A stretch of DNA of 64,000 nt from Kiritimatiellia bacterium (GCA_017962605.1 JAGCUY010000007.1:752-64751); one strand, 5' to 3'. Counted from the first letter of the stretch, positions 23,918 through 46,300 are shown. Made by a program: numbers and translations. Notes: generated from the letters alone by a model not told the origin.

Positions 23918-23923
23918 TGTGCC

Positions 23924-24750: not shown

Positions 24751-24780
24751 CGCATTGCGCATCCTGTGAATCCTGTCAAA

Positions 24781-25170: not shown

Positions 25171-25435
25171 AATTCTGCTTTCTGCATAGCAGTCGTTTAT
25201 CCCGAATCGTCGGAAACTTTTCGTATGGCGACACGATGCAAGACAGCGCGCGACCGCGCGCCTCTTTCTGTGTTTCATACAAGGCCACTTTCCGACGAGC
25301 CCGAGATAAGGACACGGGGAGAGGCCGCAACTTTTTTGTCAGATTTTCGGATTTTTTACGTATATATAGTGAAAAGGGGAATAGCGCAATGTCCTTGACC
25401 AAAGACTACACAACAATAAAGACTGGGGGAACACG

Positions 25436-26110: not shown

Positions 26111-26112
26111 AC

Positions 26113-27042
26113 ATGGACTACGATCAATACGACGCGCCCGACATGGCGTTTGGCGCAAACCTCTACGACGACGCATCGCCGGACATCCTCGGCGTCCCCA
26201 ATGCCCAGGCGGACTTTTGGGACATGCAGGAGTTCGCGGACAACTGCGAACCAACTGCCGAAAGCTTCATCATTCGCCAGTTCGGCTATGACAATATCTC
26301 GACAAACGATTTCGCGTACATCTCGAACGCGAACGGATGGTATCAGCCCGGAGGCGGCACTAGCCCCGACGATATCGGCAACATGATGGATATGTTCGGC
26401 ATCGAAAACCACACTTACAGCAATGCCTCCATTGAAAATCTGGCAAGCGAGCTCATGGAAGGACACGGCGTGATTGTAGGCGTTCGCGCAGACCAGCTTT
26501 GGGAGCAGGGGCCGCTGCAGGAACTGTGGAACTGGCTCGCCGACATTTTCGGTTTCGATAATCCAATTGACCAACCGGCCGACCACGCCGTATGCGTGAC
26601 TGGGATAGACATGTCAGACCCTGACAATCCGATGGTCATTCTCAACGACCCTGGACATCCAAACGGGCAGGGCGCGTCCTATCCGCTCGACCGCTTCATG
26701 GACGCCTGGGAGAACAGCAACTTCGTCATGAACGCAACAAACGACCCGCTACCCGCCTTCACGGCGCAAAACGAGGCAATCCGCGACTCCATCTCGCAGT
26801 ATCTTGCCAACAATGACATCGCGCTTCCTTCACCAAATTATACCGTAGCATCTGAGCCAGCAGACATTGACCTGAATGGAATCGCGAATTCCGTCCACGA
26901 GTTTACCACCCCTGTGACTAACATACTGCAAGACATTGCAGGAATCATTGGAGCAATTGCCGGTGTCGTCGTGGCTGGCAATCTTCTTGACAAAGCCCTT
27001 GACGGTTTTTCAGGCGGTGATGACTTTGCCTACTCCCTCTAA
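26113..27042 (+). CDS. Peptidase_C39-like (papain-fold, BtrH/C39_2-type) domain protein with C-terminal glycine-zipper helix
   Basis: ATG at 26113 was confirmed. Cys motif 'NCEPTAESFIIRQFG' and His/Asp region 'DHAVCVTGID...NPMVILNDPGHPNG' are present. The C-terminus is 'IAGIIGAIAGVVVAGNLL'. Confidence 0.45.
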   Translation: MDYDQYDAPDMAFGANLYDDASPDILGVPNAQADFWDMQEFADNCEPTAESFIIRQFGYDNISTNDFAYISNANGWYQPGGGTSPDDIGNMMDMFGIENHTYSNASIENLASELMEGHGVIVGVRADQLWEQGPLQELWNWLADIFGFDNPIDQPADHAVCVTGIDMSDPDNPMVILNDPGHPNGQGASYPLDRFMDAWENSNFVMNATNDPLPAFTAQNEAIRDSISQYLANNDIALPSPNYTVASEPADIDLNGIANSVHEFTTPVTNILQDIAGIIGAIAGVVVAGNLLDKALDGFSGGDDFAYSL

Positions 27043-27072
27043 TCTCAAACCACTCTCATCCCAGTTTTTAAA

Positions 27073-28941: not shown

Positions 28942-28944
28942 CAA

Positions 28945-30555: not shown

Positions 30556-30567
30556 AGGATCACGACA

Positions 30568-32718
30568 ATGACAAACGCAATTGGAATCGACTTTGGAACA
30601 TCAAGGACTATGGTGTCCTATCTGGATTCATCCACGGGCAGGGTGGAATTAGTGACTTTTGGGTGTGATAGGTTCGTGCCCACGACCGTTCACATTGATG
30701 AAAAAGGGCAATATCTTTTCGGTAAAGATGCGGACGAACTGATTGCCACCGATCCCGAAGGCTACTGCCGAGCCTTCAAATTGCATCTTGCGGAGAGTGA
30801 TCCTATATTGCCTCGCGCGGGGGCTACGGCTGAGGATTTGGCGAAGCGTTTTCTTGGCCATATAAAGGAGGAGTGCGAACAGAACGTTTTCCACGGTGAA
30901 CCAATCGGCATGGCGACCATTACGGTTCCGGTATCGTTCTCTCCCGCTCGCAAGGCGGCCTTGAAGCGGGCTGCGGAGGCGGCGGGATTCGCCAAGGTGT
31001 CGTTTCTGCCGGAACCCGAAGCCGCCGGCATAGCCTTTCTGCGCGACAACCCAACGGACAAGTTCTCTCGCGCGCTCGTTCTTGATTGGGGCGGCGGAAC
31101 GCTTGACATAGCGATTATTTCGCGGGATGAAGACGGAACCATCCATGCTGACAGCCATTGCGCCGAGGGGCGTGATGATGTGGGCGGAGAGGAAATGGAC
31201 AGACGGCTCCTTGAAGACATCTCTGCAAAGTGGAAGACCGCTTTTCGGAAACAGCTTTTAAACGATGAGCTGGATGGTGTCCGTTTTTTGCGCAAGTCGC
31301 AAGAAACAAAGGAGAAATTGTCGCAAAAGAGCACGGCTCCCTTCTGGGGCATTCCGCCACAAAAAATAGATGTCACACGGGAGCGATTCAGTCAGCTCAT
31401 CGACGAAATGCTTGATTCCGCCGTCGATTTGATCAAGTCGGCGCTTGCGAAAAACAAAAAACGAGGGAATCCTGCCCCAGACGCCATCCTCCTAATCGGC
31501 GGCACGAGCCAGGTGCCAGCTGTCCGCGAGGCGATGGAGACGAACTTTCCTCAACTCCGTGTTCTTTCCTGGCATCATTCTCACGAGGCCGTCGCCTTGG
31601 GGGCGACAGTGGTAGATGCGGCGGCGAATCCTCAAAAGAACATGCATTCTACTGAAAAGAACACGAATCGAAATCACAAAACTTCTCCAAGGAAGAATAG
31701 AGGTCATTTTGATGTCGTTTGTCCACATTGCGGAAGCATCGAAGATGTGACTGGCAAAGGCCGTTGGAAGTGTGATAATTGCGGCAAACCCTTTGATGTA
31801 GATTCCCGTTCTCATGTTTCAATACCAAAAGAAGAGGAAGGGCCGCAAGCCGACTATTCTGGCAAATGCTTTGAAGAAGCGTTATCCCGCGCAGGTGAAT
31901 TGGCGGAAAATAATGAGTTGAGAAAACTGAAAAAATGCGACGCCGACATTATTGCGAAAGCCGCAGAGAACGGCAATATTCGTGCTGCTGCCATTCTTGG
32001 CCGCCTCTATTCAGAAGGATCTCGTGGCTACCAGGTGGACAACGGGTTGGCGATAAACTGGATGACAATAGCGGCAAATGCGGGTGATAATGACAGTCAG
32101 GCAATTCTTGCTTTGTGGTCTCTTGGTGGCGAAAACAGCCCTGCGCAGAAGAATCGTTCAAATGCACTTAAATGGTCCGAAATGGCTTATGATGGGAATA
32201 GAAGCCTAAAAAACCAAGCGATTCTATTGATTGTTCTGTCGTCTTTTGAAGATCCGGACAAGACACGCATAAGGCGTATAGGCCAAAACATAGATGGCAA
32301 AGTTGCCGATAAAGCCCCGGAAGAATTTTCAACAGCGGAACAAGTACTTCTCGGCATCGTTTATTCTTCTCGAGCTGTTCTGGCTATGAAGTCTGGTAAC
32401 TATGAAAAGGCTCGCCAATTCCTGCAAAAGGGTGCTGACTTTGGAAATCAAGAATCCGTTGACGCTTTGGCGGAATTGGATAGTGAAGCAAACGAAGAGG
32501 AAAATGCCTCAGAAATAACAGATAAACGTACAAATCTGGAAAAAGAAGTAAATCGAAAACCTAAAAAAAACTCTTATACTGATCCCAATGATGCGGCATT
32601 AAGCGGTGCCGCAATTGGAGCCGTCATCGGGACTATCATCCCAGGCGCTGGAACTCTTGCTGGAGCAGGAATCGGTGCAATAGCCGGAAGGCTCAAGGCA
32701 TGGTGGGACAATTTGTGA
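30568..32718 (+). CDS. Hsp70/DnaK-type nucleotide-binding-domain ATPase fused to zinc ribbon, Sel1/TPR-like repeats and a C-terminal glycine-zipper membrane helix
   Basis: Phosphate-1 'IGIDFGTSRTMVSY', phosphate-2 'LVLDWGGGTLDIAIIS' and adenosine 'ILLIGGTSQVPAVRE' are present. Zinc ribbon is 'CPHCGS...CDNCGKPF'. Sel1-like 'AAILGRLYSEGSRGYQVDNGLAINWM'. C-terminal 'GAAIGAVIGTIIPGAGTLAGAGIGAIAG'. There is no Hsp70 substrate-binding domain. Confidence 0.65.
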   Translation: MTNAIGIDFGTSRTMVSYLDSSTGRVELVTFGCDRFVPTTVHIDEKGQYLFGKDADELIATDPEGYCRAFKLHLAESDPILPRAGATAEDLAKRFLGHIKEECEQNVFHGEPIGMATITVPVSFSPARKAALKRAAEAAGFAKVSFLPEPEAAGIAFLRDNPTDKFSRALVLDWGGGTLDIAIISRDEDGTIHADSHCAEGRDDVGGEEMDRRLLEDISAKWKTAFRKQLLNDELDGVRFLRKSQETKEKLSQKSTAPFWGIPPQKIDVTRERFSQLIDEMLDSAVDLIKSALAKNKKRGNPAPDAILLIGGTSQVPAVREAMETNFPQLRVLSWHHSHEAVALGATVVDAAANPQKNMHSTEKNTNRNHKTSPRKNRGHFDVVCPHCGSIEDVTGKGRWKCDNCGKPFDVDSRSHVSIPKEEEGPQADYSGKCFEEALSRAGELAENNELRKLKKCDADIIAKAAENGNIRAAAILGRLYSEGSRGYQVDNGLAINWMTIAANAGDNDSQAILALWSLGGENSPAQKNRSNALKWSEMAYDGNRSLKNQAILLIVLSSFEDPDKTRIRRIGQNIDGKVADKAPEEFSTAEQVLLGIVYSSRAVLAMKSGNYEKARQFLQKGADFGNQESVDALAELDSEANEEENASEITDKRTNLEKEVNRKPKKNSYTDPNDAALSGAAIGAVIGTIIPGAGTLAGAGIGAIAGRLKAWWDNL

Positions 32719-32754
32719 CATCGCAAGCACATTACGTTCAGGTTGAATAATAAG

Positions 32755-35340
32755 ATGAATAATTCTATCGGCATCGACTTCGGCACCACCAAGACGATGG
32801 TGTCGTATTTGAATCCCGTCACCGGCAGGGCGGAACTCGTCGTTTTGGATAAAAATCGCGACCGGCCTTCCATCCCTACGACTATTCATCAGGATGAAGC
32901 AGGGCAAGTCGTTTTTGGTGAAGAGGCCGATGACCAATTAGCCTATGATCCCGAAGGCTATTGCCGCGCCTTCAAACTTCATCTGGGGGAAAACGACCCC
33001 GTGTTGACTCGGACGGGGGCTACGGCGGAGGCACTGACGGAGCGCTTTCTTGAACATATCAAAGAGGAATGCGAACTGAACGTCTTCCACGGAGAGTCGA
33101 TAGACACGGCGACCATCACGGTGCCGGTGCTGTTCTCTCCTTCGCGAAAGGCGTCGTTGAAGCGTGCCGCGGAGGCGGCCGGATTCTCCTCGGTTTCGTT
33201 TCTGCCCGAGCCGGAAGCCGCTGGAACGGCGTTCCTGCGCGACAATCCGGCAGACAAGTTCTCACGGGCGCTTGTCCTCGACTGGGGTGGCGGCACACTC
33301 GACATCGCCATCATTTCCCGGAACGAAGATGGGGCTATCCATGCGGACCGCCATTGCGCGGAAGGACGCGATGACGTAGGCGGAGAGGAGATGGACAGAC
33401 TATTGCTTGGCGCGGGAAATGAATTGTGGCGCGCTACATTCGGGTTGCCCTTGATTGAGTCCGAGGAAAACGAGCCGAAGCTCTTGCGTGAGGCGGAGAA
33501 AGTAAAGATTGGCCTTTCCCGCAAGGATACGGCTACTTTTAGGCGCGTGACGAGGAAAGTCGATGTCTCACGGGCGCAGTTCAAGCAACTTATTGCGGAA
33601 ATGCTCGATTCTGCAGTCGAACTTGTCCAGTCTTCGCTTGCGAAGAACAAGAATCAGGGCAATCCCGCGCCAGACGCCATCCTTTTGATTGGCGGCACTT
33701 GCCAGATTCCAGCCGTCCGCGAGGCAATGGAGACAAACTTTCCTGAACTCCGTGTCCTGTCATGGCATCATTCGCACGAGGCTGTGGCGCTGGGAGCTAT
33801 AGGAACTACCACGGCAAATATCCATTCTGGCGTCAACTTCAAATTCCAAGCCAAATACGATTGGCTCAAAAGAGAGAGGGTGCCAACTCTAGGAGGCGCA
33901 ATTGAATCCGGCATCTACCAGACTCCAGATGGAGGCTGGCAGTGCAACTACGACGGAGATTGGGGGTATGGTTGCGCGATAACGCTTCGTCCCGGCGAAG
34001 CCGAACCCTATGAAGTCCACGGTGAGATCTGCAAACGGTGGTATTGGGAAGGCGGTGCCTTTGACGAAAACGGCAGACGAGGCTGGTTGGGCTATCCTAT
34101 CTCCGACGAAGAGGCCTTTGAAGGCGACGGCGATCCCGCCGATCGCATTTCGCACTTCGAGAACGGGGACATCGTATGGTCGGAGAAAACGAAAGAGACC
34201 CGCATCGTCAACATCAAGGATCTAGCAAAGTGGCGCAACTTCAAATTCCAAGCCAAATATGATTGGCTCAAGAGAGAGAGGGTGCCAACTCTTGGGAGCG
34301 CAATTGAACCCGGCATCTACCAAACTCCAGATGGAGGCTGGCAGTGCAACTACGACGGAGAATGGGGGTATGGTTGCGCGATAACGCTCCGTCCCGGCGA
34401 CGCCGAACCCCATGAAGTCCACGGTGAGATCTGCAAACGGTGGTATCGGGAAGGCGGTGCCTTTGACGAAACCGGCAGGCGGGGCAGGTTGGGCTATCCT
34501 ATCTCCGACGAGGAGGCCTTTGACGGCGACGGCGATCCCGCCGACCGCATTTCGCACTTTGAGAACGGAGACATCGTATGGTCGGAGAAAACGAAAGAGG
34601 CCCGCGTTGTCAACATCAAGGATCTGGCAAAGTGGCGCAACTTCAAATTCCAAGCCAAATACGATTGGCTCAAGAGAGAGAGGGTGCCAACTCTTGGGGG
34701 CGCAATTGAACCCGGCATCTACCAAACTCCAGATGGAGGCTGGCAGTGCAACTACGACGGAGAATGGGGGTATGGTTGCGCGATAACGCTTCGTCCCGGC
34801 GATGCCGAACCACATGAAGTCCACGGTGAGATCTGCAAACGGTGGTATCGGGAAGGCGGTGCCTTTGACGAAACCGGCAGGCGGGGCTGGTTGGGCTATC
34901 CTATCTCCGACGAGGAGGCCTTTGAAGGCGACGGCGATCCCGCCGACCGCATTGCGCACTTCGAGAACGGAGACATCGTATGGTCGGAGAAAACGAAAGA
35001 GACCCGCATCGTCAACGTGTTGACGGATGAAGCTTTGCGCCTATTTGCCGGATTATCCCAAGTAGATGGCGCCTTAAACCAAACGGAAGTTGATTTCATG
35101 GAGAAATGGTATCCCGGTTCCACTACCAAGTCGGCGTGGAACGAAAAATTGCTGTACTCCGACGAAACAATAGAAGCATTAGCCGACAATGCCGCAACAT
35201 CATACAATTGCAACAAACAAGTATTGTCGGCGTTGATGCAGCATCTATGCGAATTCGTTTTATGCGACGGCCTCATGAATTCAAGCGAGAATGCTGCGCT
35301 CTCGTGGATCAACTATTTCTTCTTTACCAAGTATCAATAA
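32755..35340 (+). CDS. Hsp70/DnaK-type NBD ATPase fused to three tandem LGFP-like repeat modules
   Basis: 'IGIDFGTTKTMVSY', 'LVLDWGGGTLDIAIIS' and 'ILLIGGTCQIPAVRE' are present. Then come 3 x ~134-aa repeats containing 'GWLGYPISDEEAFEGDGDPADRISHFENGDIVWSEKTKE'. Start is ATG at 32755 (TTG at 32743 is also possible). Confidence 0.65.
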   Translation: MNNSIGIDFGTTKTMVSYLNPVTGRAELVVLDKNRDRPSIPTTIHQDEAGQVVFGEEADDQLAYDPEGYCRAFKLHLGENDPVLTRTGATAEALTERFLEHIKEECELNVFHGESIDTATITVPVLFSPSRKASLKRAAEAAGFSSVSFLPEPEAAGTAFLRDNPADKFSRALVLDWGGGTLDIAIISRNEDGAIHADRHCAEGRDDVGGEEMDRLLLGAGNELWRATFGLPLIESEENEPKLLREAEKVKIGLSRKDTATFRRVTRKVDVSRAQFKQLIAEMLDSAVELVQSSLAKNKNQGNPAPDAILLIGGTCQIPAVREAMETNFPELRVLSWHHSHEAVALGAIGTTTANIHSGVNFKFQAKYDWLKRERVPTLGGAIESGIYQTPDGGWQCNYDGDWGYGCAITLRPGEAEPYEVHGEICKRWYWEGGAFDENGRRGWLGYPISDEEAFEGDGDPADRISHFENGDIVWSEKTKETRIVNIKDLAKWRNFKFQAKYDWLKRERVPTLGSAIEPGIYQTPDGGWQCNYDGEWGYGCAITLRPGDAEPHEVHGEICKRWYREGGAFDETGRRGRLGYPISDEEAFDGDGDPADRISHFENGDIVWSEKTKEARVVNIKDLAKWRNFKFQAKYDWLKRERVPTLGGAIEPGIYQTPDGGWQCNYDGEWGYGCAITLRPGDAEPHEVHGEICKRWYREGGAFDETGRRGWLGYPISDEEAFEGDGDPADRIAHFENGDIVWSEKTKETRIVNVLTDEALRLFAGLSQVDGALNQTEVDFMEKWYPGSTTKSAWNEKLLYSDETIEALADNAATSYNCNKQVLSALMQHLCEFVLCDGLMNSSENAALSWINYFFFTKYQ
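33835..35013 (+). repeat. Near-identical 402-bp tandem repeat x ~2.9 inside the Hsp70-NBD gene
   Basis: Units start at 33835, 34237 and 34639 ('aacttcaaattccaagccaaata(c/t)gattggctcaa...'), with only a few substitutions between copies. Confidence 0.85.
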
Positions 35341-35425
35341 TGGCATCTGGATGCAGCCAAAAGCACACCATCTAGGAGGAATAACCATGGCCACAACCAA
35401 GACATCCACCACGGAGGACTAATTC

Positions 35426-36592
35426 ATGGGACACACAACCGAACCAACTGGCGAGAAGCCGCCTGTTGAGCAATGGCTCGCAAACACTGGAAAGCATTCT
35501 GCGGAATGGACTTTCCGATCTGTCAAGAACTTCTTCAAATTTGAACACCCAACCGAAACAGAGGTTTCACGATTCGGAAGTGCCGCAGCCACTTTTGAGT
35601 TTTCCCGATTGTTTCCGCTTGCCGTCGTTTGCCTTGGCTTCGGATGGATTGGATCATGGATATGCTCTGTCTGCGATTTGGATGTAGAATCCGATTCCAG
35701 ATGGGCGATATGGCCAATCGCCTTTCTTGCCCTATATGGTGTTATTAGAGCTCTGAAGCATTTCCTGCGGCCAAAGAGCATCGAATGGTGGCCAAATGCG
35801 CTGATCTGTGCATTTACTGCCACAATAGGGTTGCTAACCCTTTTCCTCTTTCAGAGCCTGGCTGACGTAATGGCGGATATTGACGCAAGGCGCGGTTTTG
35901 TGGCATTGGTAAAAATGATTGGGCAATGCTATCGAGCAGTTGACGATCCCGAAGCTGGTCTTTCTGAGAAGTTCATAGGCTATATTGGAGGAGTCGGTCT
36001 TTGTGAGGAATCCGTGAAGATTCTCCCAGTTTGCCTCCTGATGGTCAACAGGAAAAAACTGCCGTTCAGACTTGAATTGTCTTTCCGGTCATTTTTGACA
36101 TTGGCATTCTTCTCCGGACTTGGTTTTGGCATCGGGGAGGCGCTATATAGCTATGCCATTCCTGAAAATGGCGATTTGGATGCCCAATTGTCACGGTGGT
36201 TCGCCTGCGTCCCCTCGCATGCGATCTATACAATGATCGATGCCGCCTTCCTTTGGCTACTGCAACCGCAAATCCAAAGAGCCGCAGACCCCAGAATAAA
36301 AGTAGGTTGGTTTGTCCTTTGCGTGGCAACAGTCGCTGTCTTGCATGGGATCTACGATGTCCTTTGCGTAATTCCATTTGTGGGCGTGCTCCTTGATGCG
36401 GCTTCGTTGGTGCTACTTTGGTGGGCGGTGCGGTTTTCCATTCGGCGCCGCTCCTCGGTTGACGGTTCGGATTCTTCGGGCCTAGAGGACTTCAACGCCA
36501 TGACTTTCAATACTTTTGGCAAATTTTTTGCCAAGACATATCTCATCATTCTCGTCGGCATTATCCTTTATGCCAAGTTCTGGTGTCTTTGA
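35426..36592 (+). CDS. PrsW-family intramembrane metalloprotease (anti-sigma-factor site-1 protease-like)
   Basis: RBS 'ggagga' plus ATG at 35426. Multi-TM. PrsW signature motifs 'CEESVKIL' (EExxK), 'GFGIGEALYSY' (FGxxE) and 'HGIYDVL' (HxxxD). Confidence 0.6.
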   Translation: MGHTTEPTGEKPPVEQWLANTGKHSAEWTFRSVKNFFKFEHPTETEVSRFGSAAATFEFSRLFPLAVVCLGFGWIGSWICSVCDLDVESDSRWAIWPIAFLALYGVIRALKHFLRPKSIEWWPNALICAFTATIGLLTLFLFQSLADVMADIDARRGFVALVKMIGQCYRAVDDPEAGLSEKFIGYIGGVGLCEESVKILPVCLLMVNRKKLPFRLELSFRSFLTLAFFSGLGFGIGEALYSYAIPENGDLDAQLSRWFACVPSHAIYTMIDAAFLWLLQPQIQRAADPRIKVGWFVLCVATVAVLHGIYDVLCVIPFVGVLLDAASLVLLWWAVRFSIRRRSSVDGSDSSGLEDFNAMTFNTFGKFFAKTYLIILVGIILYAKFWCL

Positions 36593-36604
36593 GGAGTATT
36601 CATC

Positions 36605-37381
36605 ATGAAGTTCATCTGTCCGCATTGCAATCAGCATTTGGAGAGTGAAGAGGATGTTGCAGGAATTGGCGTTGAATGCCCCAACTGCGGCAAAACGTTT
36701 GTCGCGGCATCCTCTGGCGCGGAAACCATGCTGGGGGAAGCTCCACAAGAGCGAACGTCTGAAGGCGAACTCGACGCTGCCAATGACTTTCTTGAACGCG
36801 CGATTGGAAACATTCTGCATGCAATCTGGGGCATAATTAGCAGAATCGGCCATGTGATTAAATGGCTTGCAATGCGCCTGTATGATGTTGTCAACTGGTT
36901 ATTCAGAATGCTAATCGACATTGTGAAGTTCTTCTTCACAATCCGTTTCCTGAAGCTTCTGGTTTTGCTGGTAGTTCTTGCGGTCGTATGCGCCGTCTTT
37001 GCGGGTATAATCGCTGCGCCGTTCTTCCTTTTGATTTGGTTCGCTCAGGGGACGCCTTGGGGCACGATGAAGAGTCTGATGGGCATGCCTTTCGTCGACG
37101 CGACCAGAGTTGTTGGGCGGACGGTGTATGCATGGCTCTGCGGAGAAGGGGTCAAACATGGTCTTTACAATGCGGCATGGATTGTTGAGGGAGTTTGGTT
37201 GGTATTGTTTGCAGGTTGGGGTGCCTGGAAGGGCGTTAAGAGCTACAAGCGCGGTGTGATTGCGCGCTGGCGTGAACGTCGAAGGATTCGTAAGGCTGAA
37301 CGCCGTGCGGAAAAGGAAGCCAGACGGGCAGCAAAAGAAGCAGCAAGGCAGGGCGAGGCCCAGCCACTCGCTATTCGCTAG
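36605..37381 (+). CDS. Zinc-ribbon membrane protein (hypothetical)
   Basis: N-terminal 'CPHCNQ...CPNCGK' ribbon, several TM helices, and a C-terminal Arg/Lys/Glu-rich tail. RBS 'gaggag' is present. Confidence 0.4.
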   Translation: MKFICPHCNQHLESEEDVAGIGVECPNCGKTFVAASSGAETMLGEAPQERTSEGELDAANDFLERAIGNILHAIWGIISRIGHVIKWLAMRLYDVVNWLFRMLIDIVKFFFTIRFLKLLVLLVVLAVVCAVFAGIIAAPFFLLIWFAQGTPWGTMKSLMGMPFVDATRVVGRTVYAWLCGEGVKHGLYNAAWIVEGVWLVLFAGWGAWKGVKSYKRGVIARWRERRRIRKAERRAEKEARRAAKEAARQGEAQPLAIR

Positions 37382-37419
37382 CCAAATCGGCGACACAATC
37401 CAAGAAAGGACGGTAAAAC

Positions 37420-38499
37420 ATGGGCACGATACTTGGAGACATGTTCAAGAAGGTCGGGGGTGGCCTTGGAAAAGGCTTTGCGTCATGGCTTGGGCAAATC
37501 TCGACGTGGATTGCGCTTTTAGTCGCAACAGTACTGGCTGTCGCATCTCTGGTTGGCGGCATCTTCTGGATCCCGACAAAAACGCTGGGCGTCCTGATCG
37601 CTGGCATCGGGTGTTTAGCTTCCGGCATTCTCTTTGCCCTCTGTCTGCGAAAGAGCGGAGTATTTGGCTCAAAGGATGCGGAAACCCGTGCTGCATTGCA
37701 GAAGGAAATCGAAAAACTCCGCTGCGAAAAGGATGCCCGCATCGCCGCGTTGGAGGCCGACAACGAACGTCTAAAGCACCAGCGCATCGACGTCAATTCG
37801 TTCGCGCCCATCCTCAAGCTGGGACTTGCCGAGGCTGACATGTCAGTTCGTGATGTGAAAATCGAATGGATGGACGATTTCAAGCCAGGAAACATGTTGA
37901 CGAATGTGATTGGCTACCCCGCGCGCAGCAAATACGTTGGTGTCATTCAACGGTCGTTCAAGGCCGTTTATGGCGTCGATTTGATGAAACTCAAGATTTG
38001 CGAGGATAACGACTGTCTTCGCATAGCCGGTATCGTGCCGGAGAACATCGGCATCAAGGATGACGAAACGCGCTGGCTTCTGCGTCAGACGCAGACTTTC
38101 CGGTTGAAGGGAACTCCTCTGACGCGCGGCGATGGCATCCCGCAGCAATGCGCCATAGGCGACGGCTGGGGCGATGGCGAGAAATTCTGGCAAATCGACA
38201 AGGAAGCGCCGTTCGAGGGCAGTCTCGATCTCAACAAGACTGCGGAAATGGCGAGTGCGCAGGAGCACGAGCTTGGCGAACGCATCAACCGAAGCCAGGG
38301 CGCCGAGTTTAGGATGATGAATGGCTACATCCAGCAAATGGCGCAAGGGTTTGTCAGACTCCTCCTCGCTCCCGCCCACAAGCCTGTGGTCTTCGTACAG
38401 ACTCCGCTTGCCGAAATCGCCGACTCTCCAGCATGGCTCTCTCTGGAAGACTTCGCTGCCGGATTCAACAATAAGTTGCTGGCGGAAAACAAACCATGA
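37420..38499 (+). CDS. Membrane protein with coiled-coil segment and DUF4230-like C-terminal domain (hypothetical)
   Basis: Two N-terminal TM helices, a coiled coil 'ALQKEIEKLRCEKDARIAALEADNERLK', and a region resembling DUF4230 ('VIQRSFKAVYGVDLMKLKI...'). Confidence 0.35.
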   Translation: MGTILGDMFKKVGGGLGKGFASWLGQISTWIALLVATVLAVASLVGGIFWIPTKTLGVLIAGIGCLASGILFALCLRKSGVFGSKDAETRAALQKEIEKLRCEKDARIAALEADNERLKHQRIDVNSFAPILKLGLAEADMSVRDVKIEWMDDFKPGNMLTNVIGYPARSKYVGVIQRSFKAVYGVDLMKLKICEDNDCLRIAGIVPENIGIKDDETRWLLRQTQTFRLKGTPLTRGDGIPQQCAIGDGWGDGEKFWQIDKEAPFEGSLDLNKTAEMASAQEHELGERINRSQGAEFRMMNGYIQQMAQGFVRLLLAPAHKPVVFVQTPLAEIADSPAWLSLEDFAAGFNNKLLAENKP

Positions 38500-39134
38500 C
38501 CAAAACAAGAACGAAGAAGTCCGCCAAGGGTGGGGCCATGAAGCCTTCCCTGCGAGACCGCATCTACACCTCCTTCGAGCAGATGACGGATGCGTACAAC
38601 GAAGTGCGTGATGACCTGATCGCGCTGGGCATTCTTTGGAGGGGCTCGAAGCTCGACAAGGTGGAGTGCTACTATGAATCCATCGCCCCCATTGCCGCTC
38701 TCAAGGGGGGGATGGGGTATTTCAGTTTCAAGGACCACGACATCCATTTTCCCTCCTTATATCTGCCTTTCGGCTGGCTGACCGGCAGCGTTGGCGAAAA
38801 AGATTCTGCATCAAACGTGATCCGCCACGAGTTCGGCCACGCGCTCGCCGATCAGTACCCAGCGGCGCTGAAAAAGGGCGGGCTTTTCCGCGAGGCGTTT
38901 GGAGGAGTCTATTCCGACAAGCCTGCGCCCGACATCGATCCCGACAACTGGGAGTTCGATTGCGTCTCCCCCTACGCCGCAACCGAAACCCGCGAGGACT
39001 TCGCGGAGACTTTCATGCTTTTCCTGAAGCACAAGGGGAAGTTGCCGAAAAAGTTCGCTAATAAACCAGCCATCGCGAAGAAATGGGCCGCTGTGGCTGA
39101 AATCATAAAGCGCGTTCGTGCATTAGAAAACTGA
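38496..39134 (+). CDS. HExxH zinc metallopeptidase-like protein
   Basis: 'IRHEFGHALAD' (HExxH) with a downstream Glu in 'REDFAETF'. Its start overlaps the previous stop (ATGA). Confidence 0.5.
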   Translation: MTKTRTKKSAKGGAMKPSLRDRIYTSFEQMTDAYNEVRDDLIALGILWRGSKLDKVECYYESIAPIAALKGGMGYFSFKDHDIHFPSLYLPFGWLTGSVGEKDSASNVIRHEFGHALADQYPAALKKGGLFREAFGGVYSDKPAPDIDPDNWEFDCVSPYAATETREDFAETFMLFLKHKGKLPKKFANKPAIAKKWAAVAEIIKRVRALEN

Positions 39135-39161
39135 AAGAATACCTAATCAGGAGACCTCATC

Positions 39162-39872
39162 ATGAATAAAACAACAACGAAGAAAAATGCGCCAAAGGCG
39201 CGTAGGGAAACTGAAACCGTAGTCTGCCCACATTGCGATACGGAGTGCCTTGTGTCGGAAAACGGACGCTATGAGTGTCCAAATTGCACAGGACAGTTCG
39301 ATGTAGACTGGTTTGACACGCCGCATGTCCACCAGCCCGACTTGCAGACATGCGGCTGGGCGACGACAAAGTGGCTTCTGTCCGCATTTGGGTGTGAGAT
39401 GCCATCAAACAAGCAACTCGAACGGGAACTGCATGTCCGCAAAGGTCGCGATGGTCTTTCGGGCGCACTTCTCAAGGCTTACAACTACTTTATCGAAGCT
39501 TTCGGCAAGAAGTGGAACTGGCAAAAGATCGACTCTCAGGACATTTCTGGAACTTTGCCCACCGACCTTGTCGCGACACTCAATCGACATGGACTCAAGC
39601 CTGTATTTCCTGGAATCCGCGAACTGCTCCGCTATTCCGACTATAAGAACTACATGAAAGAAGTGTTCGCCCAGCAAGGCCGTTTTGCGCTCTTCTATGT
39701 TAACACGACCCGCGATGGGTCTTATGCACATTGGATCGGGATTGAGAAGTTCAAGAACAGGGTCCGCGTGATGGATCCCATGGACTATGACTACTCGCCG
39801 TTTTCAAAGCACGAAGCCATCCGCAGCAAGCGAATTCGCGCATGCTGCATGATTGGGTTCGTGAGGGCGTAG
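39162..39872 (+). CDS. Zinc-ribbon + Peptidase_C39-like (papain-fold) domain protein
   Basis: 'CPHCDTEC...CPNC' ribbon. C39-type 'QPDLQTCGWATTKWLLSAFG' (Gln/Cys) and 'SYAHWIGIEKF...VMDPMD' (His/Asp). RBS 'aggaga' is present. Confidence 0.5.
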   Translation: MNKTTTKKNAPKARRETETVVCPHCDTECLVSENGRYECPNCTGQFDVDWFDTPHVHQPDLQTCGWATTKWLLSAFGCEMPSNKQLERELHVRKGRDGLSGALLKAYNYFIEAFGKKWNWQKIDSQDISGTLPTDLVATLNRHGLKPVFPGIRELLRYSDYKNYMKEVFAQQGRFALFYVNTTRDGSYAHWIGIEKFKNRVRVMDPMDYDYSPFSKHEAIRSKRIRACCMIGFVRA

Positions 39873-39902
39873 GGCGCTGTCGCGCCTGAGAGGTTTGTCG
39901 CC

Positions 39903-40265
39903 CGTGGTTAGTGATTAGTCGTTAGTCATTAGTGGCTCGCATGGTGTGCATCCCCTATCGAATATTTTCCCGCACCGTAATCTATCGACTTCTCCGCACC
40001 GTGGTCTAGCGACAATTCCTAACCTTAGTCTAGCGACCTTTCCGACCCGTAGTCTATCGATGTTTCCTCGCCATAGTCTATCGACATTCCCGCATGGTAT
40101 AGCCTATCGACTTTTCCGAAACATGATCCAAAGTTTTTCCGAACCATGGTCAGTTTTTCTTTCCGCACCATGGTCTATTTTTCTTTCCGCACCATGGTCT
40201 ATTTTTCTTTCCGCACCATGGTCTATTTTTCTTTCCGCACCATGGTCTTGTGAAACGAATGCATG
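39903..40265 (+). repeat. Right island-flanking repeat (IR-R): 'gtggttagtgattagtcgttag' head plus ~12 degenerate 24 to 27-bp tandem units ending in 4 perfect 'tttttctttccgcaccatggtcta' copies
   Basis: Direct reading. It matches 42030..42310 in the same orientation and 24781..24900 in inverted orientation. Confidence 0.8.
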
Positions 40266-40369
40266 GCGGCGCCGCATCAGCAGCTTGCGCATAGCGGGAG
40301 TGGTTGTGATACTACTCAATCAGATGACAAAGTGTGTAGATAGCAGAATGCGCCTGAGCAGAATACAGG

Positions 40370-40452
40370 TGGTTGTGAAAATGGAAAATTTGGCATATTT
40401 TGTGGTTGTGAAAATGTGAAAATCTGTATGTTTTATGGTTGTGAAAATGGAG
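40370..40452 (+). promoter_or_regulatory. Three ~31-bp direct repeats 'ggttgtgaaaatg' (iteron/operator-like) plus -10-like 'gatataat' upstream of the AAA ATPase
   Basis: 'ggttgtgaaaatggaaaatttggcatattttgtggttgtgaaaatgtgaaaatctgtatgttttatggttgtgaaaatggagcgaatatgatataat'. Confidence 0.4.
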
Positions 40453-40491
40453 CGAATATGATATAATATCTTGAATTTTGGGAGAATCTGC

Positions 40492-41862
40492 ATGATAAAC
40501 AGAAAAATAATGAAGAGGCTTGAACTCCTGCGTACTTCCAATGGAAAGCACGCGCTTCTCATCGATGGCGCGCGACAGACTGGGAAGACTTACATTGTAA
40601 GGGAATTCGCAAAAAGACATTACGAGTCCTTCATTGAAATCAACTTTATCAGAATGAAGAGGGCTCGGGAAATTTTCGAAAACGTCGAAGACGAGAAGGA
40701 CATCCTTGTAAAACTGTCAGCCCTGTTTAAGAAACCGCTGAAGAAAGGCGCAACGCTTGTGTTCCTTGACGAAGTTCAGGAATGCCCGGAGGCTGTCACT
40801 TACATCAAGTTTTTGGTGGAAGAGGGGTCGTGCCATTATGTGTTGAGCGGGTCCCTGCTGGGTGTCGAACTCAAAAACATTCGTTCGGTGCCTGTCGGGT
40901 ATATGGATGAGGTGAAGATGTATCCGCTGGACTTTGAGGAGTTCGTCGAGGCGAACGGTGAGTCCCCTGAATTGGTAGAGGCCGCAAGACAGTCGTGGAA
41001 CAAGCGCCGCCCGCTTGCCTCCGTCTATCACACGAGGCTGCTGAAACTTTTCCGGCTTTACCTTGTTGTTGGCGGCATGCCCGCCGTTGTCCAGAAATAC
41101 ATCGACACCCACGACATCGCCCAAGTCGTGCGCGAACAAAAAAAGATACTTGCGCTCTACCGCCGGGACATAACGCAATACGACGAGGCGAATTCCCTTC
41201 GAATTCGTGCCGTGTTCGACCGCATTCCGGCGGAGCTAAACGAGAAGAACAAGCGGTTTTTTGCGTCTTCCATAAAACCGGGCGTGAAGTTTGAAAACCT
41301 TGGAGACGAGTTCCTTTGGCTGAAAGAGGCTGGCGTGGCCCTTGCCACGGTTAACGTGGAGGCGCCGAAGTCGCCGCTCAAGCTTGCTGAGAAGCCAAGC
41401 TTGTTCAAGCTGTTTTCAAACGATGTCGGACTTCTGGCGGCCCAGTACATGAATGGAATCCAACTTGAGATCTTGAATGGAGCCGTGGATGTCAACTTTG
41501 GGGCCGTTTACGAGAACGCTGTGGCGCAGGAACTCGCCGCGCATGGGTTTGAGTTGAACTATTACGATTCAAACAGGCACGGGGAGATTGATTTTGTTTT
41601 GGAGCGCGAAGGGGGCGTTCTTCCCGTGGAAGTCAAGAGCGGAAAGCACTACAAGCGGCATCGTGCGTTGAACCATGTAATGGCGGACCGTGAATACGCG
41701 ATAAAGGAGGCGCTTGTCCTTGACGATTCGATGCTTTCCGTTGAAAATGGGATATTCTATGCGCCAATCTACATGGTCATGTTCCTGAAAAGGGACACCA
41801 TGCCTGAGAAGATGATCTACTCTGTAGGCACACCGCTGGAAGTGGCAAAAGCCTTGTCATGA
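40492..41862 (+). CDS. AAA+ ATPase (AAA_14 + DUF4143 family ATP-binding protein)
   Basis: Walker A 'GARQTGKTY' and Walker B 'LVFLDEVQ'. RBS 'gggaga' plus ATG at 40492 (the track start at 40471 is TTG). Lower G+C. Flanked by direct repeats. Confidence 0.6.
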   Translation: MINRKIMKRLELLRTSNGKHALLIDGARQTGKTYIVREFAKRHYESFIEINFIRMKRAREIFENVEDEKDILVKLSALFKKPLKKGATLVFLDEVQECPEAVTYIKFLVEEGSCHYVLSGSLLGVELKNIRSVPVGYMDEVKMYPLDFEEFVEANGESPELVEAARQSWNKRRPLASVYHTRLLKLFRLYLVVGGMPAVVQKYIDTHDIAQVVREQKKILALYRRDITQYDEANSLRIRAVFDRIPAELNEKNKRFFASSIKPGVKFENLGDEFLWLKEAGVALATVNVEAPKSPLKLAEKPSLFKLFSNDVGLLAAQYMNGIQLEILNGAVDVNFGAVYENAVAQELAAHGFELNYYDSNRHGEIDFVLEREGGVLPVEVKSGKHYKRHRALNHVMADREYAIKEALVLDDSMLSVENGIFYAPIYMVMFLKRDTMPEKMIYSVGTPLEVAKALS

Positions 41863-42029
41863 ACTTCCAACATCCTGCAGCCCGAACCGCATCCACCGGC
41901 ACGGCCACGGCGGCAAGTGCATCTGGTGCGGCTCAACCTCCACCGGCAGCGGGTGCCCATACTCCCCTACCCGCCGGCATGAACGGTAGAGGGCAGTGTG
42001 AACTTAGTCGCAATACTGTCTGAAGTTAA

Positions 42030-42310
42030 TCATTAGTCGTTAGCCGTTAGTCACTAGTCGTTAGTGGCTCGCACGGAGTGTATTCCCTATCGAATACTTT
42101 CCCGCACCGTAATCTATCGACTTCTCCGCACCGTGGTCTAGCGACCTTTCTGACCCGTAGTCTATCAATGTTTCCGCACTATAATCTATCGACATTCCCG
42201 CACGGTATAGTCTATCGACTTTTCCGAAACATGATCCAAAGTTTTTCCGAACCATGGTCTAATAATGTTTACGCTCCATGGTCTATTGGCATTTCCGAAC
42301 CATAGTCTTG
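42030..42310 (+). repeat. Second direct copy of the IR-R repeat
   Basis: 'cattagtcgttagccgttagtcactagtcgttagtggctcgcacggagtgtattccctatcgaatactttcccgcaccgtaatctatcgacttctccgcaccgtggtctagcgacc...'. Confidence 0.8.
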
Positions 42311-42314
42311 TGAA

Positions 42315-42410
42315 AGGGTGAGCCCTTCGGGCGAAGTTTGGAGGTTTGGCGCAATAGCGCCTTGGATGGTTGAGCCATTAGGGCGAAGTTTAGGAGTTTG
42401 GCGTGAAATC
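42315..42410 (+). repeat. 'gagcccttcgggcgaagtttggag' small repeat element (2 tandem copies)
   Basis: Further copies at 43116..43185 (same orientation) and 49275..49400 (inverted: 'ccaaacttccaaacttcgcccgaagggctcaaac'). Confidence 0.7.
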
Positions 42411-42423
42411 CTTTTTTTGTTTT

Positions 42424-42510
42424 TTTACCATGCGTTTCGTGGAAGTTTACAATTTTTTAACCATGCATTTCGTGGTAATATGACAATTTATTAACCACGC
42501 ATTTCGTGAT
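42424..42510 (+). repeat. Three ~31-bp direct repeats 'ttaaccatgcatttcgtgg' upstream of the truncated ATPase paralog
   Basis: 'accatgcgtttcgtggaagtttacaattttttaaccatgcatttcgtggtaatatgacaatttattaaccacgcatttcgtg'. Confidence 0.6.
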
Positions 42511-42517
42511 TGCTTGA

Positions 42518-43117
42518 TTGGCAAAAATATCGAAATATGATATTGTATTGGAGAGCAGCGCCCGTTTCCGCGAATACGAAGGTGCCTTCATGTGGCTAAA
42601 GGATGCCATGGTTGCAAATGTCGCCCTAAGCGTAACAGATCCGAACATTGGGTTTGACTTGAGCGCCGACGATGCCAAGATGAAATGCTACTTCCTTGAC
42701 ACGGGGCTTCTTGTCAGCCATGCGTTCAGCGAAAACGCGCTTGTCGCCGCCGACATCCACAAGAGAATTCTGTTTGATGACATCGAATTGAATGAAGGAA
42801 TGCTTGTTGAAAATGTCGTGGCCCAAATGCTATCTGCAGCCGGCCACAAGCTTTACTACTACTCAAATTCATCGCGGACCGATAGAGACTCCCGGATGGA
42901 AATTGACTTTCTCCTTGCCAGAAACACCCTGGGCGAGCGGAACAATGTTATTCCCGTTGAGGTGAAGAGCGGGAAGCGGACAACGCACCGTTCGCTAGAC
43001 AAGTTTCGCGCCAAGTTCGCAAACTACGTCCATACCCCTTGCATTCTTTCGCGGCGAGATTTAGAGATAAAGGACGGGATACTTTACCTCCCGCTCTACA
43101 TGACTCCATGTCTTTGA
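42518..43117 (+). pseudogene. N-terminally truncated paralog of the DUF4143 AAA ATPase (C-terminal ~200 aa only, no ATG)
   Basis: The ORF begins with TTG. It aligns to the C-terminal third of the 40492..41862 product ('FMWLKDAMVA' vs 'FLWLKEAGVA'; 'VIPVEVKSGKRT' vs 'VLPVEVKSGKHY'). Confidence 0.55.
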
Positions 43118-43316
43118 GCGCCGAAGTTTGGCGCTTACGCGCCCTTGATGTTTGAGCCATGCGGGCGAAGTTTGGAAATGGAGGATTGCGTGGCAGCGTG
43201 ATGGCAAAGGCTGGTTGCATTATTGCCGCTGTTTGCCTTTGAAGGGGCTTTTTTGATAAAATGAATATGTTGGAATTGCTTTATTTTTGAGAGTGAAAAA
43301 CAACGAGAACCAGGCA

Positions 43317-46300
43317 ATGAATAATTCATCTTTGCACCGCATCCCGCCAGCGGCCGCGCTGGCGCTGGCAGCGTTAGCCCTTTTTTGTGCCAACGCGGAG
43401 CCGCCGCGCTTCCTGGCCCCCATGCCGGGCAAGGAGGAGGAGAAGACGACTACCGACATCCTCCCCATCCCTCCCGAAGCGACCGAGGAGCAGAAGGAGG
43501 AGTATGAGAAGGTCATCGAAAAGGCCCGCACGGACGACGTGTCGGTGACAGACCAGGCCGCCCTCATGTATCGCGGCCTCGCCTGCCTAGTGGACGAGGA
43601 ATATGAGGAGTCCATCCCGTTCTTCGAGGAGGCCCTGCGTCGCGACCCCTCCCTCCAGGCCGCATGGGAGGGCCTTGGATGGGCCCATATCCGCATTGAT
43701 GACAAGAAGACCGCCAAGGCGATCTGGGATTATTTCCGCCGTTTGATGCCCGAACAGCCCCTTCCTTACGCCCTTCTCGGGCAAATGGCCGTCCTCGAAT
43801 ACGACTGGCCCCTCGCCGACAGGCACTTCAAAAAGTCCCTGGAGCTGAAGCCCGACCAGTTCGACGTGCGCTACTGGTACGCCCAGAACCTCATGCGCCT
43901 CGGCAAGGCCAGCGAGGCCGAGGACATCTTCCGCGCCCTCATAAAGCTTGAGCCGGACCGCCTCGACATCGAAATTGACCTCGCCGGCCTTCTCGTCCAG
44001 CGCCTCGAATACAACGAGGCCGTTGAAATATACCGCCGCGTTAACGACGAGATTCCCGACAACCCCCGCTTCCTGCTTGAAGAGGCCCTTCTGGAACTCA
44101 AGGTGGGCGAAGTGACCCGCGCCGACGAACTCTGCCAGCAAGTGCTGGAGCTTGAGCCGTCGAACCTTGACGCCATGCGCCTCCGCGCAGACATCGCGGA
44201 GATCGTCGGCCTGAACGACATATCCCCTCTCCGCGACCTGATCGACCAGACGGACGACCCACTCCAGAGGGCCGCGCTGCGCATCCGCCTCGCCAACCGC
44301 TGCCTCCTTGAAAACCGCAGCAAGCCGGGGCAGTATGAACAGGACATGATCCTCGGCCTGATCCACGACGCCATCAAGGACAACCCGGCCAGCGTGGAGT
44401 ACCGCATTCTCTACGCCCAGCTGCTTGTGATGGACAACCAGTACGCGAAGGCCCGCGCCGTCGCGAACGCCGTCCTCGAGCGCTTCAACCGCGCCAATTT
44501 CGACGCCAAGCAGGTCCTGCTTGAAGTCGATATGCGCGAATCCAAATACGATGACGCCCTCCAGGTTCTTTCCGACCTTTACAGCGGCCTTTCCGCCGAT
44601 GACCCGATGGCCCACTACTACCGCGCCCGCATCTACACCTTGCAGGGCCGCTACGCCGATGCCAAGCGCGAAATAGACTTCATTGAGGCCGCAGCCAGCC
44701 AGGGCGCGGTCCTCTCGCTCGTTTACACCGCCCTCACGGAGAGCGACTGGACGCCCGCCACATCGGTCCGCCGCCTCCACGAGCACATACTCGCCCTCCA
44801 GCAGGAGGGGTGGATACTCGTTCCGCCGGCGGAAATAGAGAGGCTGCTCCGCCCACCGGAAGGCGAGCGGCGCTCCGGCGGCGTGGCGAAGGAGTCAATA
44901 CCCCTGACGGCAAAGCTCGTCGATTACTTCCGCTGGTGCTTCACCGGTAAGAGGAAATACCCATCGGAGGATTCCTCCTCCGCGATCGCCAAGCCCAAGA
45001 AATACTTCACGGTGTTCTTCGACGGCGACCTTCGCTCCTCCCTCCTTCTCGGCAACGAAGTCGCCGAGGACTTCGGCGTGCCATTCGGCATTTTCGTGCC
45101 TACCGGCCCATCCAAGGAATACGTGCCGTCGCGCGCCGGTTGGGACGAACTCCGCGACTACGCCCAGTCTGGCAACTGGGTGGTTGGCAGCCAGCTTCAC
45201 TACGCCTATGAAAAGAAGCCCGTGGACAAGGACAGCCTAGACTGGCGCCCGCCGCTGCCGAACCGCATCTGGCTCCCCGAGAAGAACCGCATTGAGTCCA
45301 TGGGCGAGTGGGACAAGCGCGTCCGCACCGAGTTCCGCATGAGTCGCAACGTCCTCAGACACGAAATGGGCGCGGACGACTCGGCAGTGCCGATGGTCGC
45401 CTATCCCTTCAACGACGTCGGCCAGGCGGGAGCCTGCAACCTCTACTCCGTCCGCGACCCCATAGGCACCATCGTAGCCGAGGCGGCGCGCTCCTATCGA
45501 CTGGGCTTCGTCCAGAGCCAGAGCGGCTACACGCTCTACGGCGACAACCTCCTCCTCTGCCGCCGCTACGCTCCGAGCTGGACCGACGAGGGCGCGGACG
45601 TCGTCCGCCACGCCTACGAGTACCACCCGCTCTTCATCGCGCGCAAGCTACGTGCCGAAGTGGCGATGCTAATGAACCACCCGAACGAGGCGAACGCCAT
45701 GGCAGACGTCCTGAAGCGCGACGGCTATCCCGACGAACTTTGCCGCCAGCTGGATGCGGCCATCCACTCCCACTTCCAGAACAAGCCCACACGCGAGCGC
45801 CCGCCGCTCGTTGTCGAGGAGGACTACTACGACGACAACACCAACGTCGTCATCGCCTCCTCCGTCAACGAGGGGACCGGCAACCCGCTCATCAGATTTG
45901 ACCACCCGTTCGTTGGCGCGCTTGCAATGCACAGCAAGGCCAATGACCAGATAGAGACCTTCGAATACGGCGCCCGCGCCGGCATAGACCTCTCGCGCAA
46001 CACCACGCTGGCCTTCGAGTTCACCAACGGCCGCATGGAGCAGACGGTCCGGCCGCGCTGGGATGCCGTCATCATCACGAACGTCCCATACTCGAAGAGC
46101 AAGTACAAGTTCAAGATGGAAACCCAGACCATCAAGGGCACGCTCACGCACCGCAATGAGAGCGGCACCATCCTCTCCGCCACCCTTGGCATCGCGAAGA
46201 AGTCCCGGGTCTCCACTTCGGTCTCCCTCACGGACATCAACCTCCAGGACGATCTCAACTCGCACGTGTTCACGCTTGATGACGACGACTCAACCGTTGT

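Follow-up and report, generated by a model that had tools for sequence, protein, structure and literature searches.

A shuffling peptidase cassette behind a dynamin/Hsp70 front end in a Kiritimatiellia bacterium: candidate output arm of a membrane-associated conflict system

A 64,000-nucleotide (nt) stretch of DNA from a Kiritimatiellia bacterium (GCA_017962605.1, JAGCUY010000007.1:752-64751; called "the window" below) carries five tightly packed genes at positions 35426-39872. They encode a PrsW-family protease, a zinc-ribbon membrane protein (g7), a membrane-hairpin protein (g8), an HExxH zincin (g9), and a zinc-ribbon protein with a papain- or C39-like peptidase domain (g10). Comparison with related loci shows that these genes form a recurrent cassette whose members shuffle and that normally lies behind a block encoding an M48 peptidase and an AAA+ ATPase. 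In the window, this engine is replaced by one composed of a C39_2 peptidase, dynamins and Hsp70 proteins. We lean toward the view that the five genes serve as the output cassette of a conflict system that is mosaic and associated with the inner membrane. The system would be driven by nucleoside triphosphatases (NTPases), would act most likely against phages or other mobile elements, and would reside on a horizontally acquired island of a rumen or gut bacterium.

The window proteins, and the proteins of the first related loci, were mapped by tblastn onto all fetched loci (numbered with the prefix L), which are mostly rumen or gut metagenome contigs from related Planctomycetes-Verrucomicrobia-Chlamydiae (PVC) bacteria. 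The usual context of g8 is a gene for an M48 peptidase followed by x160, x192, an AAA+ ATPase gene, x128/x135, a variable stretch, g8 itself, and a second variable stretch. This M48 block is found upstream of g8 in at least nine loci (L006, L010, L011, L013, L014, L017, L022, L024 and L026/27). Its AAA+ ATPase is IetA-like, x160, x192, x128 and x135 belong to no Pfam family, and the block as a whole corresponds to no PADLOC system. The variable stretches hold genes for PrsW proteins with a zinc ribbon, g7, a TerB-DnaJ-zinc-ribbon protein, small zinc-ribbon proteins, a 389-amino-acid (aa) protein, FHA-domain giants, patatin, g10 and g9.

Only L024 has all five cassette genes, in the form of zinc-ribbon PrsW (42% identity), g7 (42%), the TerB-DnaJ-zinc-ribbon protein, g8 (50%), the 389-aa protein, a g10-like protein (29%) and g9 (60%). 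Cassette partners around g8 were mapped in L006, L011, L017 and L024, and g8 loci are often without PrsW (L010, L013, L014 and L026). Elsewhere, g9 and g10 follow an FtsK/vWA/PP2C block (L015), and g8 adjoins a divergent MoxR/vWA/kinase block (L012). Because the genes recur behind the M48 block and in smaller groups at other sites, the five constitute a shuffling cassette. The M48/x160/x192/AAA+/x128-x135 block is absent from the window, where its place is taken by genes for a 224-aa transmembrane (TM) protein, a C39_2 peptidase, two dynamins and two Hsp70 proteins.

Close relatives of g8 occur in 2 of 185,579 species genomes. A phage origin of the cassette was considered and rejected, as viral contigs yielded no relatives of g8 or g10 and none of the five genes has a PHROG. 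A search for plasmid relatives of g8 and PrsW found none.

The five open reading frames (ORFs) lie on the plus strand exactly where a first-pass annotation of the window had placed them, and the junctions that it described as overlapping or at most 40 nt long measure, in order, 12, 38, -4 (an ATGA overlap) and 27 nt. Translation of g9 is probably coupled to that of g8, because its start overlaps the g8 stop. The same annotation credited every gene with a good ribosome-binding site, which holds for PrsW (GGAGGA), g7 (GAGGAG) and g10 (AGGAGA); the Shine-Dalgarno-like sequences of g8 (AAGGA) and g9 (GGCGGA) are weaker. Since each of the five has homologues elsewhere with conserved residues, all are real genes. 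They make up the 3' half of a larger operon of 11 co-directional genes (25436-39872) with junctions of -4 to 85 nt, and the same 11-gene string recurs on several rumen or gut metagenome contigs. An 11-codon ORF (MATTKTSTTED, 35388-35423) with a strong Shine-Dalgarno sequence, AGGAGGA, occupies part of the 85 nt that separate the second Hsp70 gene from the PrsW gene.

The linkage to the upstream dynamin and Hsp70 genes that had been proposed for the five genes is upheld by this common operon, and also by shared domains. Three zinc-ribbon subtypes can be distinguished among the proteins of the window and its relatives. Subtype A is present in g7 and at the N-terminus of PrsW homologues. Subtype B, with the pattern VVCPHC...G[KR]..C.NC...FDVD, is near-identical in the first Hsp70 protein and g10, and subtype C is carried by the TerB-DnaJ protein and a 431-aa neighbor. 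By a Rosetta-stone-type argument, the ribbon subtypes common to each pair suggest that PrsW works with g7 and Hsp70 with g10. The remaining shared domain is a TerB-like module on the second Hsp70 protein, as described below.

Assignment of the first cassette protein to the PrsW family is confirmed by a hidden Markov model search, in which PF13367 scored 52.9 bits against a cut-off of 23.5 (E 4.4e-14); its homologues also carry PF13367, and the NCBI annotation of the gene is PrsW family protease. The expected motifs are intact: across 27 sequences (the window protein and 26 relatives, down to 22% identity), no variation is seen at residues E194, E195, K198, F234, G235, E238, H265 and H307. Hydropathy indicates several hydrophobic segments. 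At 52.9 bits, the subfamily is distant from the core of the profile. The window protein is without the N-terminal CxxC...CxxC zinc ribbon that most of its close relatives have, and more distant relatives carry FHA domains.

The product of the next gene, g7, begins with a zinc ribbon (CxxC...CxxC) of the type seen on PrsW relatives, and continues with a conserved amphipathic segment, a TM region, and a basic tail with a conserved SYKRGVIARWRERRR, in keeping with its earlier description as a zinc-ribbon membrane protein. The TM region comprises one strong segment (residues 118-136) and a second, at about 190-210, that was read by eye. Homologues were recovered by tblastn in L011 (39% identity) as well as in L024, and no Pfam model exists for the family.

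In the g8 protein, a TM hairpin whose PTKxLG turn is invariant precedes a long helix (residues 54-121) and a globular domain rich in beta structure (126-359). The protein belongs to no Pfam, NCBIfam or PADLOC family, and a profile search delineated a family of about 270 representative clusters at 50% identity, with members of similar length. The first-pass annotation had called this protein DUF4230-like, a label that we reject at the sequence level. PF14014 (DUF4230) gave no match to the protein itself at E<=1; 60 family members had no match to this or other families at E<=0.01, nor did six isolated C-terminal domains at E<=10. Fold searches of the PDB returned coiled-coil or insignificant matches only, so that no solved structure was matched. 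The TM anchor and the beta-rich domain after it, with its "...YGVDL..." motif, are reminiscent of DUF4230.

The first 20 residues of the window g8 protein (MGTILGDMFKKVGGGLGKGF) are 80% identical to the N-termini of TerB-DnaJ-zinc-ribbon proteins, which are encoded between g7 and g8 in related loci. Most g8 homologues do not have this 20-residue extension. An in-frame deletion that removed the J-protein gene but left its start as a relic on g8 would fit this arrangement. The gene itself is gone from the window, and the survivors are these 20 codons and the TerB-like domain on the second Hsp70 protein. Residues 760-863 of that protein (its C-terminal 105) share 43% identity with the second TerB-like domain of the L006 TerB-DnaJ-zinc-ribbon protein. 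On the basis of this match, the module that tethers the J domain in relatives is attached directly to Hsp70 in the window. J domains recruit DnaK, and membrane J-proteins of the DjlA type likewise combine a TerB and a J domain. The g8 N-terminus also contains a GGG motif. A double-glycine leader was tried as an explanation and rejected, as the peptide is the TerB-DnaJ-zinc-ribbon N-terminus and is missing from most g8 homologues.

For g9, the match to PF15887 (Peptidase_Mx) is marginal (27.5 bits against a cut-off of 27), and the L011 homologue scores 31.9 bits. The HExxH motif and a downstream acidic ligand are present, and H111, E112, H115, D119, E167, D168 and E171 are invariant in five sequences of 35-60% identity, which supports the earlier designation of g9 as an HExxH peptidase. 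Hydropathy indicates a soluble protein with no TM segment.

The g10 protein combines a subtype B zinc ribbon (C22, C25, C39 and C42; residues 22-42) with a domain in which Q58, C64 and H190 never vary and at least 90% of sequences conserve D205. The family has no Pfam model, and the match to Pfam C39 (PF03412) is not significant (E 0.24; 11.7 bits against a cut-off of 22). An AlphaFold2 (AF2) model with a predicted local distance difference test (pLDDT) value of 79 has a papain fold. When the model was compared with the PDB by Foldseek, the best match was the C39 domain of PCAT1 (E 1.3e-4), followed by Josephin, staphopain and other papain-like enzymes. The model thus points to a papain-fold, C39-like cysteine peptidase with a Gln/Cys/His/Asp set, in agreement with the zinc-ribbon/C39-like protein named in the first-pass annotation. 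PCAT-type C39 domains share this fold and residue set; in contrast to PCAT1, g10 has neither an ABC transporter (none is present in the island) nor a double-glycine substrate, and is fused to an N-terminal zinc ribbon. Because of the zinc ribbons and the lack of TM segments, g9 and g10 are predicted to be cytoplasmic. Homologues of g10 elsewhere adjoin zincin, vWA/PP2C or M48/AAA genes. Recent paralogy between g10 and the C39_2 gene of the operon (g1) was rejected after comparison of the two. In the g10-like gene of L024 (9642-10670), the catalytic Cys is replaced by Ser (DSSGWA rather than QTCGWA), with His and Asp kept; its product may be either a serine-nucleophile variant or inactive.

The front end of the operon (Table 1) opens with the 224-aa protein, which has no Pfam match. 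Its residues 87-165 are 40% identical to a small gene located right after a PrsW homologue (L005, 1552-1797), a similarity that suggests a further link between the front end and PrsW. The C39_2 peptidase is 38% identical to the product of a C39 gene preceding a dynamin pair on the Anabaena plasmid pANA01. Both dynamins show an intact GxxxxGKS P-loop (GEIKKGKS at residue 53 of dynamin 1 and GRMKTGKS at residue 57 of dynamin 2), and the LeoA match of dynamin 2 is restricted to its N-terminal P-loop region. Both Hsp70 proteins carry the Hsp70 nucleotide-binding domain only; in the first, coverage of the HSP70 profile is confined to positions 109-378. The second Hsp70 gene contains a 402-nt unit repeated three times in tandem (33828-35016; 95% identity), and its product has three near-identical LGFP modules, although it is expected to be cytoplasmic.

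The pANA01 locus (L033; Anabaena sp. 90, NC_019428.1 54300-73235) has the gene order HTH, Hsp70 nucleotide-binding domain, 412 aa, DO-GTPase, DO-GTPase, 479 aa, C39_2, 187 aa, dynamin, dynamin. DO-GTPase models match these neighbors of the C39_2-dynamin-dynamin module. The C39_2-dynamin-dynamin front end is therefore a conserved module in its own right, and on pANA01 a DO-GTPase/Hsp70 system like those of Kaur et al. 2020 is joined to a C39-dynamin pair that has its homologue in the window front end. An Hsp70 match on a Pseudomonas plasmid (L032) lies in an unrelated three-gene context and was set aside.

The operon is enclosed, together with an AbiEi gene and a PDC-S01 gene, in an island of about 20 kb with a GC content of ~52%, compared with ~63% in the flanks and genome. 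The borders of the island are formed on one side by MBOAT and DUF459 genes and on the other by a gene for a 1219-aa protein rich in TPR repeats. The AbiEii toxin partner of the AbiEi gene appears truncated, and a second AAA_14/DUF4143 (PDC-S01) copy is present only as a fragment, at 42518-43117.

We propose the following scheme for these components. They would assemble on the cytoplasmic face of the membrane by means of TM hairpins and zinc-ribbon adaptors, and the NTPase engine would sense a cue from the membrane or the invader. In the window, this engine would be the dynamin GTPases and the dedicated Hsp70 ATPases; in relatives, it would be the AAA+ ATPase and the J-protein, which would recruit DnaK. 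Remodeling of the complex by the engine might then license proteolysis, with PrsW cutting within the membrane and the zincin and papain-like enzyme cutting in the cytoplasm. Likely substrates would be the hairpin proteins g7 and g8 or a protein of the invader, and the outcome could be altered membrane function or growth arrest. A conflict system is favored because the operon lies on an acquired island beside Abi and PDC-S01 genes, variable partners accompany a constant engine, several peptidases are present, the engine has been replaced, and the distribution is patchy. The intact catalytic sites, the hints of physical coupling in the zinc ribbons and J-protein remnants, and the recurrence of the C39_2-dynamin-dynamin front end on pANA01 count in its favor as well. 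It is favored also because of parallels with Eleos dynamins, the TerB-containing Shango and Bunzi systems, and the NTPase/peptidase systems of Kaur et al.

Defense systems based on TerB and on dynamins are established experimentally (bioRxiv 10.1101/2022.05.11.491447). As in Eleos/Leo (Millman et al. 2022), the window has two adjacent dynamins with intact P-loops, matches to LeoBC and LeoA, and a defense-island setting. However, Eleos is a two- or three-gene system, whereas the window pair is flanked by C39_2, two Hsp70-like ATPases and the five-gene cassette, and dynamin 2 resembles LeoA over its P-loop region alone. TerB domains occur in the validated defense systems Shango and Bunzi, which are thought to survey the membrane. 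The window differs from these in having no helicase or other partner of theirs and in having lost its J-protein gene.

Kaur et al. 2020 (PMC7159879) described GTPase-centric conflict systems (DO-GTPase/GAP1, with or without Hsp70 and tubulin) and peptidase-cascade conflict systems. The window has the same logic of constant NTPase engines, Hsp70 without a peptide-binding domain, zinc ribbons, TM components, variable partners and several peptidases. Unlike those systems, it has no DO-GTPase or recognizable GAP1; its GTPases match Dynamin_N and not DO-GTPase1/2, and the word "dynamin" appears nowhere in the main text of that paper.

Several considerations weigh against a conflict function. Each functional step in the scheme is drawn from gene context, and the scheme names no demonstrated substrate or trigger. 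The first-pass annotation had envisaged a proteolytic cascade; its parts list stands, in that three peptidases with intact catalytic residues accompany two zinc-ribbon or membrane proteins, and the cascade itself remains putative. None of the five genes is covered by a PADLOC model, and the products of the window version include no toxic effector of a classical type (nuclease, NADase or pore former). The loci of the comparative set come from related PVC bacteria and are not fully independent. A lookup of the downstream flank for strain variants free of the island, which would prove mobility, found none, as the flank always carried it. Dynamins, Hsp70, DjlA-like J-proteins, and M48 and PrsW proteases also act in ordinary membrane homeostasis.

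This last point leads to a housekeeping explanation, in which the system would serve membrane-protein quality control or membrane remodeling and repair with no role in conflict: dynamins and Hsp70 proteins would reshape or repair the inner membrane, and the three cassette peptidases would dispose of damaged membrane proteins. Proteins of the M48/HtpX type and AAA+ proteins are classical quality-control factors. Moreover, nearly all components are membrane-anchored or have membrane-acting homologues, glycine zipper and TM segments included, and Bacillus subtilis DynA is described as maintaining membrane integrity. Cyanobacterial dynamin-like proteins with a downstream DnaK-domain gene have also been discussed as agents of membrane remodeling (PMC5827413). 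Housekeeping machinery is not expected, however, to reside on a low-GC island with Abi and PDC-S01 neighbors, to be distributed so patchily, or to differ in gene content between close relatives to the point that whole engines are swapped. We therefore consider this explanation unlikely.

Two further explanations start from the peptidases. PrsW of B. subtilis is the site-1 protease of the anti-sigma factor RsiW (MEROPS M82, PF13367), and the first-pass annotation drew on this analogy. Regulated intramembrane proteolysis would then signal to transcription, as with PrsW/RsiW/sigma-W, with PrsW cutting an anchored regulator (g7) and the cytoplasmic peptidases completing the release of a factor. 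The window protein belongs to the same multi-TM family with intact EExxK, FGxxE and His motifs, and the adjacent g7 contributes a zinc ribbon on the cytoplasmic side together with a basic tail potentially able to bind nucleic acid. In the passages concerned, Zhang et al. 2012 (PMC3482391) proposed that PrsW proteins fused to zinc ribbons, FHA or PilZ are signaling peptidases that cleave proteins on a sensed signal. Relatives of the window PrsW likewise carry N-terminal zinc ribbons, and distant ones FHA domains. Those passages name the architecture only and do not describe the cassette partners or the M48/AAA+ or dynamin/Hsp70 engines. The sigma-factor analogy is not sustained, though: scans of the operon and of ten further window ORFs revealed no sigma, anti-sigma, extracytoplasmic function (ECF) or DNA-binding domain. 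Instead, PrsW sits inside an 11-gene NTPase/protease operon and represents a subfamily, only distantly related to the profile core, that is typified by an N-terminal zinc ribbon, here on the separate next gene. It is also missing from four of the g8 loci, as noted above. Signaling to transcription thus appears very improbable.

Maturation and export of a toxin or peptide, in which C39-type peptidases would trim leaders and PrsW would be a processing conduit, seems hardly more probable. The operon does encode two papain/C39-type peptidases, a PrsW-dependent route for polymorphic toxins is outlined in part of PMC3482391, and the GGG motif of g8 could suggest a leader. Against this, an ABC transporter and an immunity gene are lacking, and PrsW is not fused to any toxin domain; g9 and g10 are placed in the cytoplasm; and the peptide bearing the GGG motif is the J-protein relic.

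A bolder, tentative form of the conflict reading takes the window and its relatives as representatives of a family of modular immune systems, so far undescribed, that survey the membrane. Interchangeable NTPase engines would drive a common output cassette of one intramembrane protease, two cytoplasmic proteases and hairpin proteins, and related zinc ribbons would serve as docking adaptors. The engines may be an M48 peptidase, AAA+ ATPase and J-protein that borrows host DnaK, or a dynamin pair with Hsp70 ATPases. If this is true, the Hsp70 chaperone cycle would be an integral step of a bacterial immune pathway, and bacterial dynamins would gain a defined downstream proteolytic output. For bacterial dynamin (Eleos) systems, a dynamin pair hard-wired to Hsp70-like ATPases, proteases and membrane proteins supplies concrete partners and candidate substrates. 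The exchange of engines before the same cassette amounts to a natural experiment and suggests that the two are functionally equivalent. As Pfam offers no model for g7, g8, the zinc-ribbon papain-like protein or three core members of the M48 block, and g8 alone accounts for about 270 clusters, the data point to an uncharacterized system of some breadth. PrsW, Peptidase_Mx, papain-like peptidases, dynamin and Hsp70 are already known as separate families. No description of the cassette, of its association with M48, AAA+ and J-proteins, or of the dynamin/Hsp70 variant was found in PADLOC 2.0 or the searchable literature, whose coverage is incomplete. Literature searches, similarly incomplete in coverage, for PrsW with dynamin/Hsp70, with anti-phage or defense, or with TerB/M48 found nothing relevant.

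Table 1. Positions of the operon genes and neighboring features in the window
Feature	Position	Strand	Length	Basis
Low-GC island enclosing AbiEi gene, operon and PDC-S01 gene	23500-43400			Composition profiles
AbiEi_4 antitoxin-like gene, upstream of operon	23888-24466	+		PF13338 E 4.3e-6
Protein with N-terminal TM helix, first gene of operon	25436-26110	+	224 aa	Called in L001/L002
Peptidase_C39_2-like cysteine peptidase with C-terminal TM segment	26113-27042	+		PF13529 E 1.8e-7; TM by hydropathy
Dynamin-like GTPase 1 (LeoBC/LeoA-like)	27073-28941	+		Dynamin_N E 7.4e-19; PADLOC LeoBC 1.7e-26, LeoA 4.8e-24
Dynamin-like GTPase 2	28945-30555	+		Dynamin_N E 1.2e-16; PADLOC LeoA 9.5e-11
First Hsp70 protein: nucleotide-binding domain, zinc ribbon subtype B (385-405), Sel1/TPR, glycine zipper	30568-32718	+		HSP70 E 8.1e-34
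Second Hsp70 protein: nucleotide-binding domain, three LGFP repeats, C-terminal TerB-like domain	32755-35340	+		HSP70 E 7e-33; LGFP E 1.4e-27
PrsW gene	35426-36592	+	388 aa	
g7, zinc-ribbon TM protein gene	36605-37381	+	258 aa	
g8, hairpin-protein gene	37420-38499	+	359 aa	
g9, HExxH zincin gene	38496-39134	+	212 aa	
g10, zinc-ribbon and papain/C39-like gene	39162-39872	+	236 aa	
24-nt and 33-nt repeat arrays, between operon and next gene	39966-40451			Tandem-repeat analysis
AAA_14/DUF4143 ATPase, downstream of operon	40471-41862	+		Pfam; PADLOC candidate defense gene PDC-S01 E 2e-184

In at least six independent loci (the window, L006, L008, L013, L014 and L022), a system that contains PrsW or g8 is flanked by genes for AAA_14-family ATPases. 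These ATPases are of the AAA_14/DUF4143, PDC-S01-like type, or ATPase_2/AAA_14 in L014, with identities of 29-36% where measured. Because the neighbors are so divergent, their recurrence suggests either a functional link or a common insertion hotspot.

Repeats accompany both the AbiEi gene and the PDC-S01 genes. A 24-nt repeat (TTTTCCGCACCGTAGTCTATCGAC, 5-6 copies) and 33/34-nt repeats precede each PDC-S01 gene or fragment, forming arrays at 39966-40248, 40369-40451, 42096-42308 and 42420-42508, with inverse copies near 24790-24830. The arrays before the PDC-S01 genes look like iterated protein-binding sites. The AbiEi gene is bracketed by short tandem arrays of 8/16-nt (AACTTCTCAACTTTTC) and 14-nt units at 23663-23733, 24900-25018 and 25101-25157.

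Beyond the island, the genes on the upstream side (MBOAT/DUF459/SGNH, 21042-23572) are of a polysaccharide O-acylation type, and the TPR-rich gene on the downstream side occupies 43317-46976. A toxin-antitoxin module, HipB/HipA, follows at 49.6-51.1 kb, a few kb past the island.

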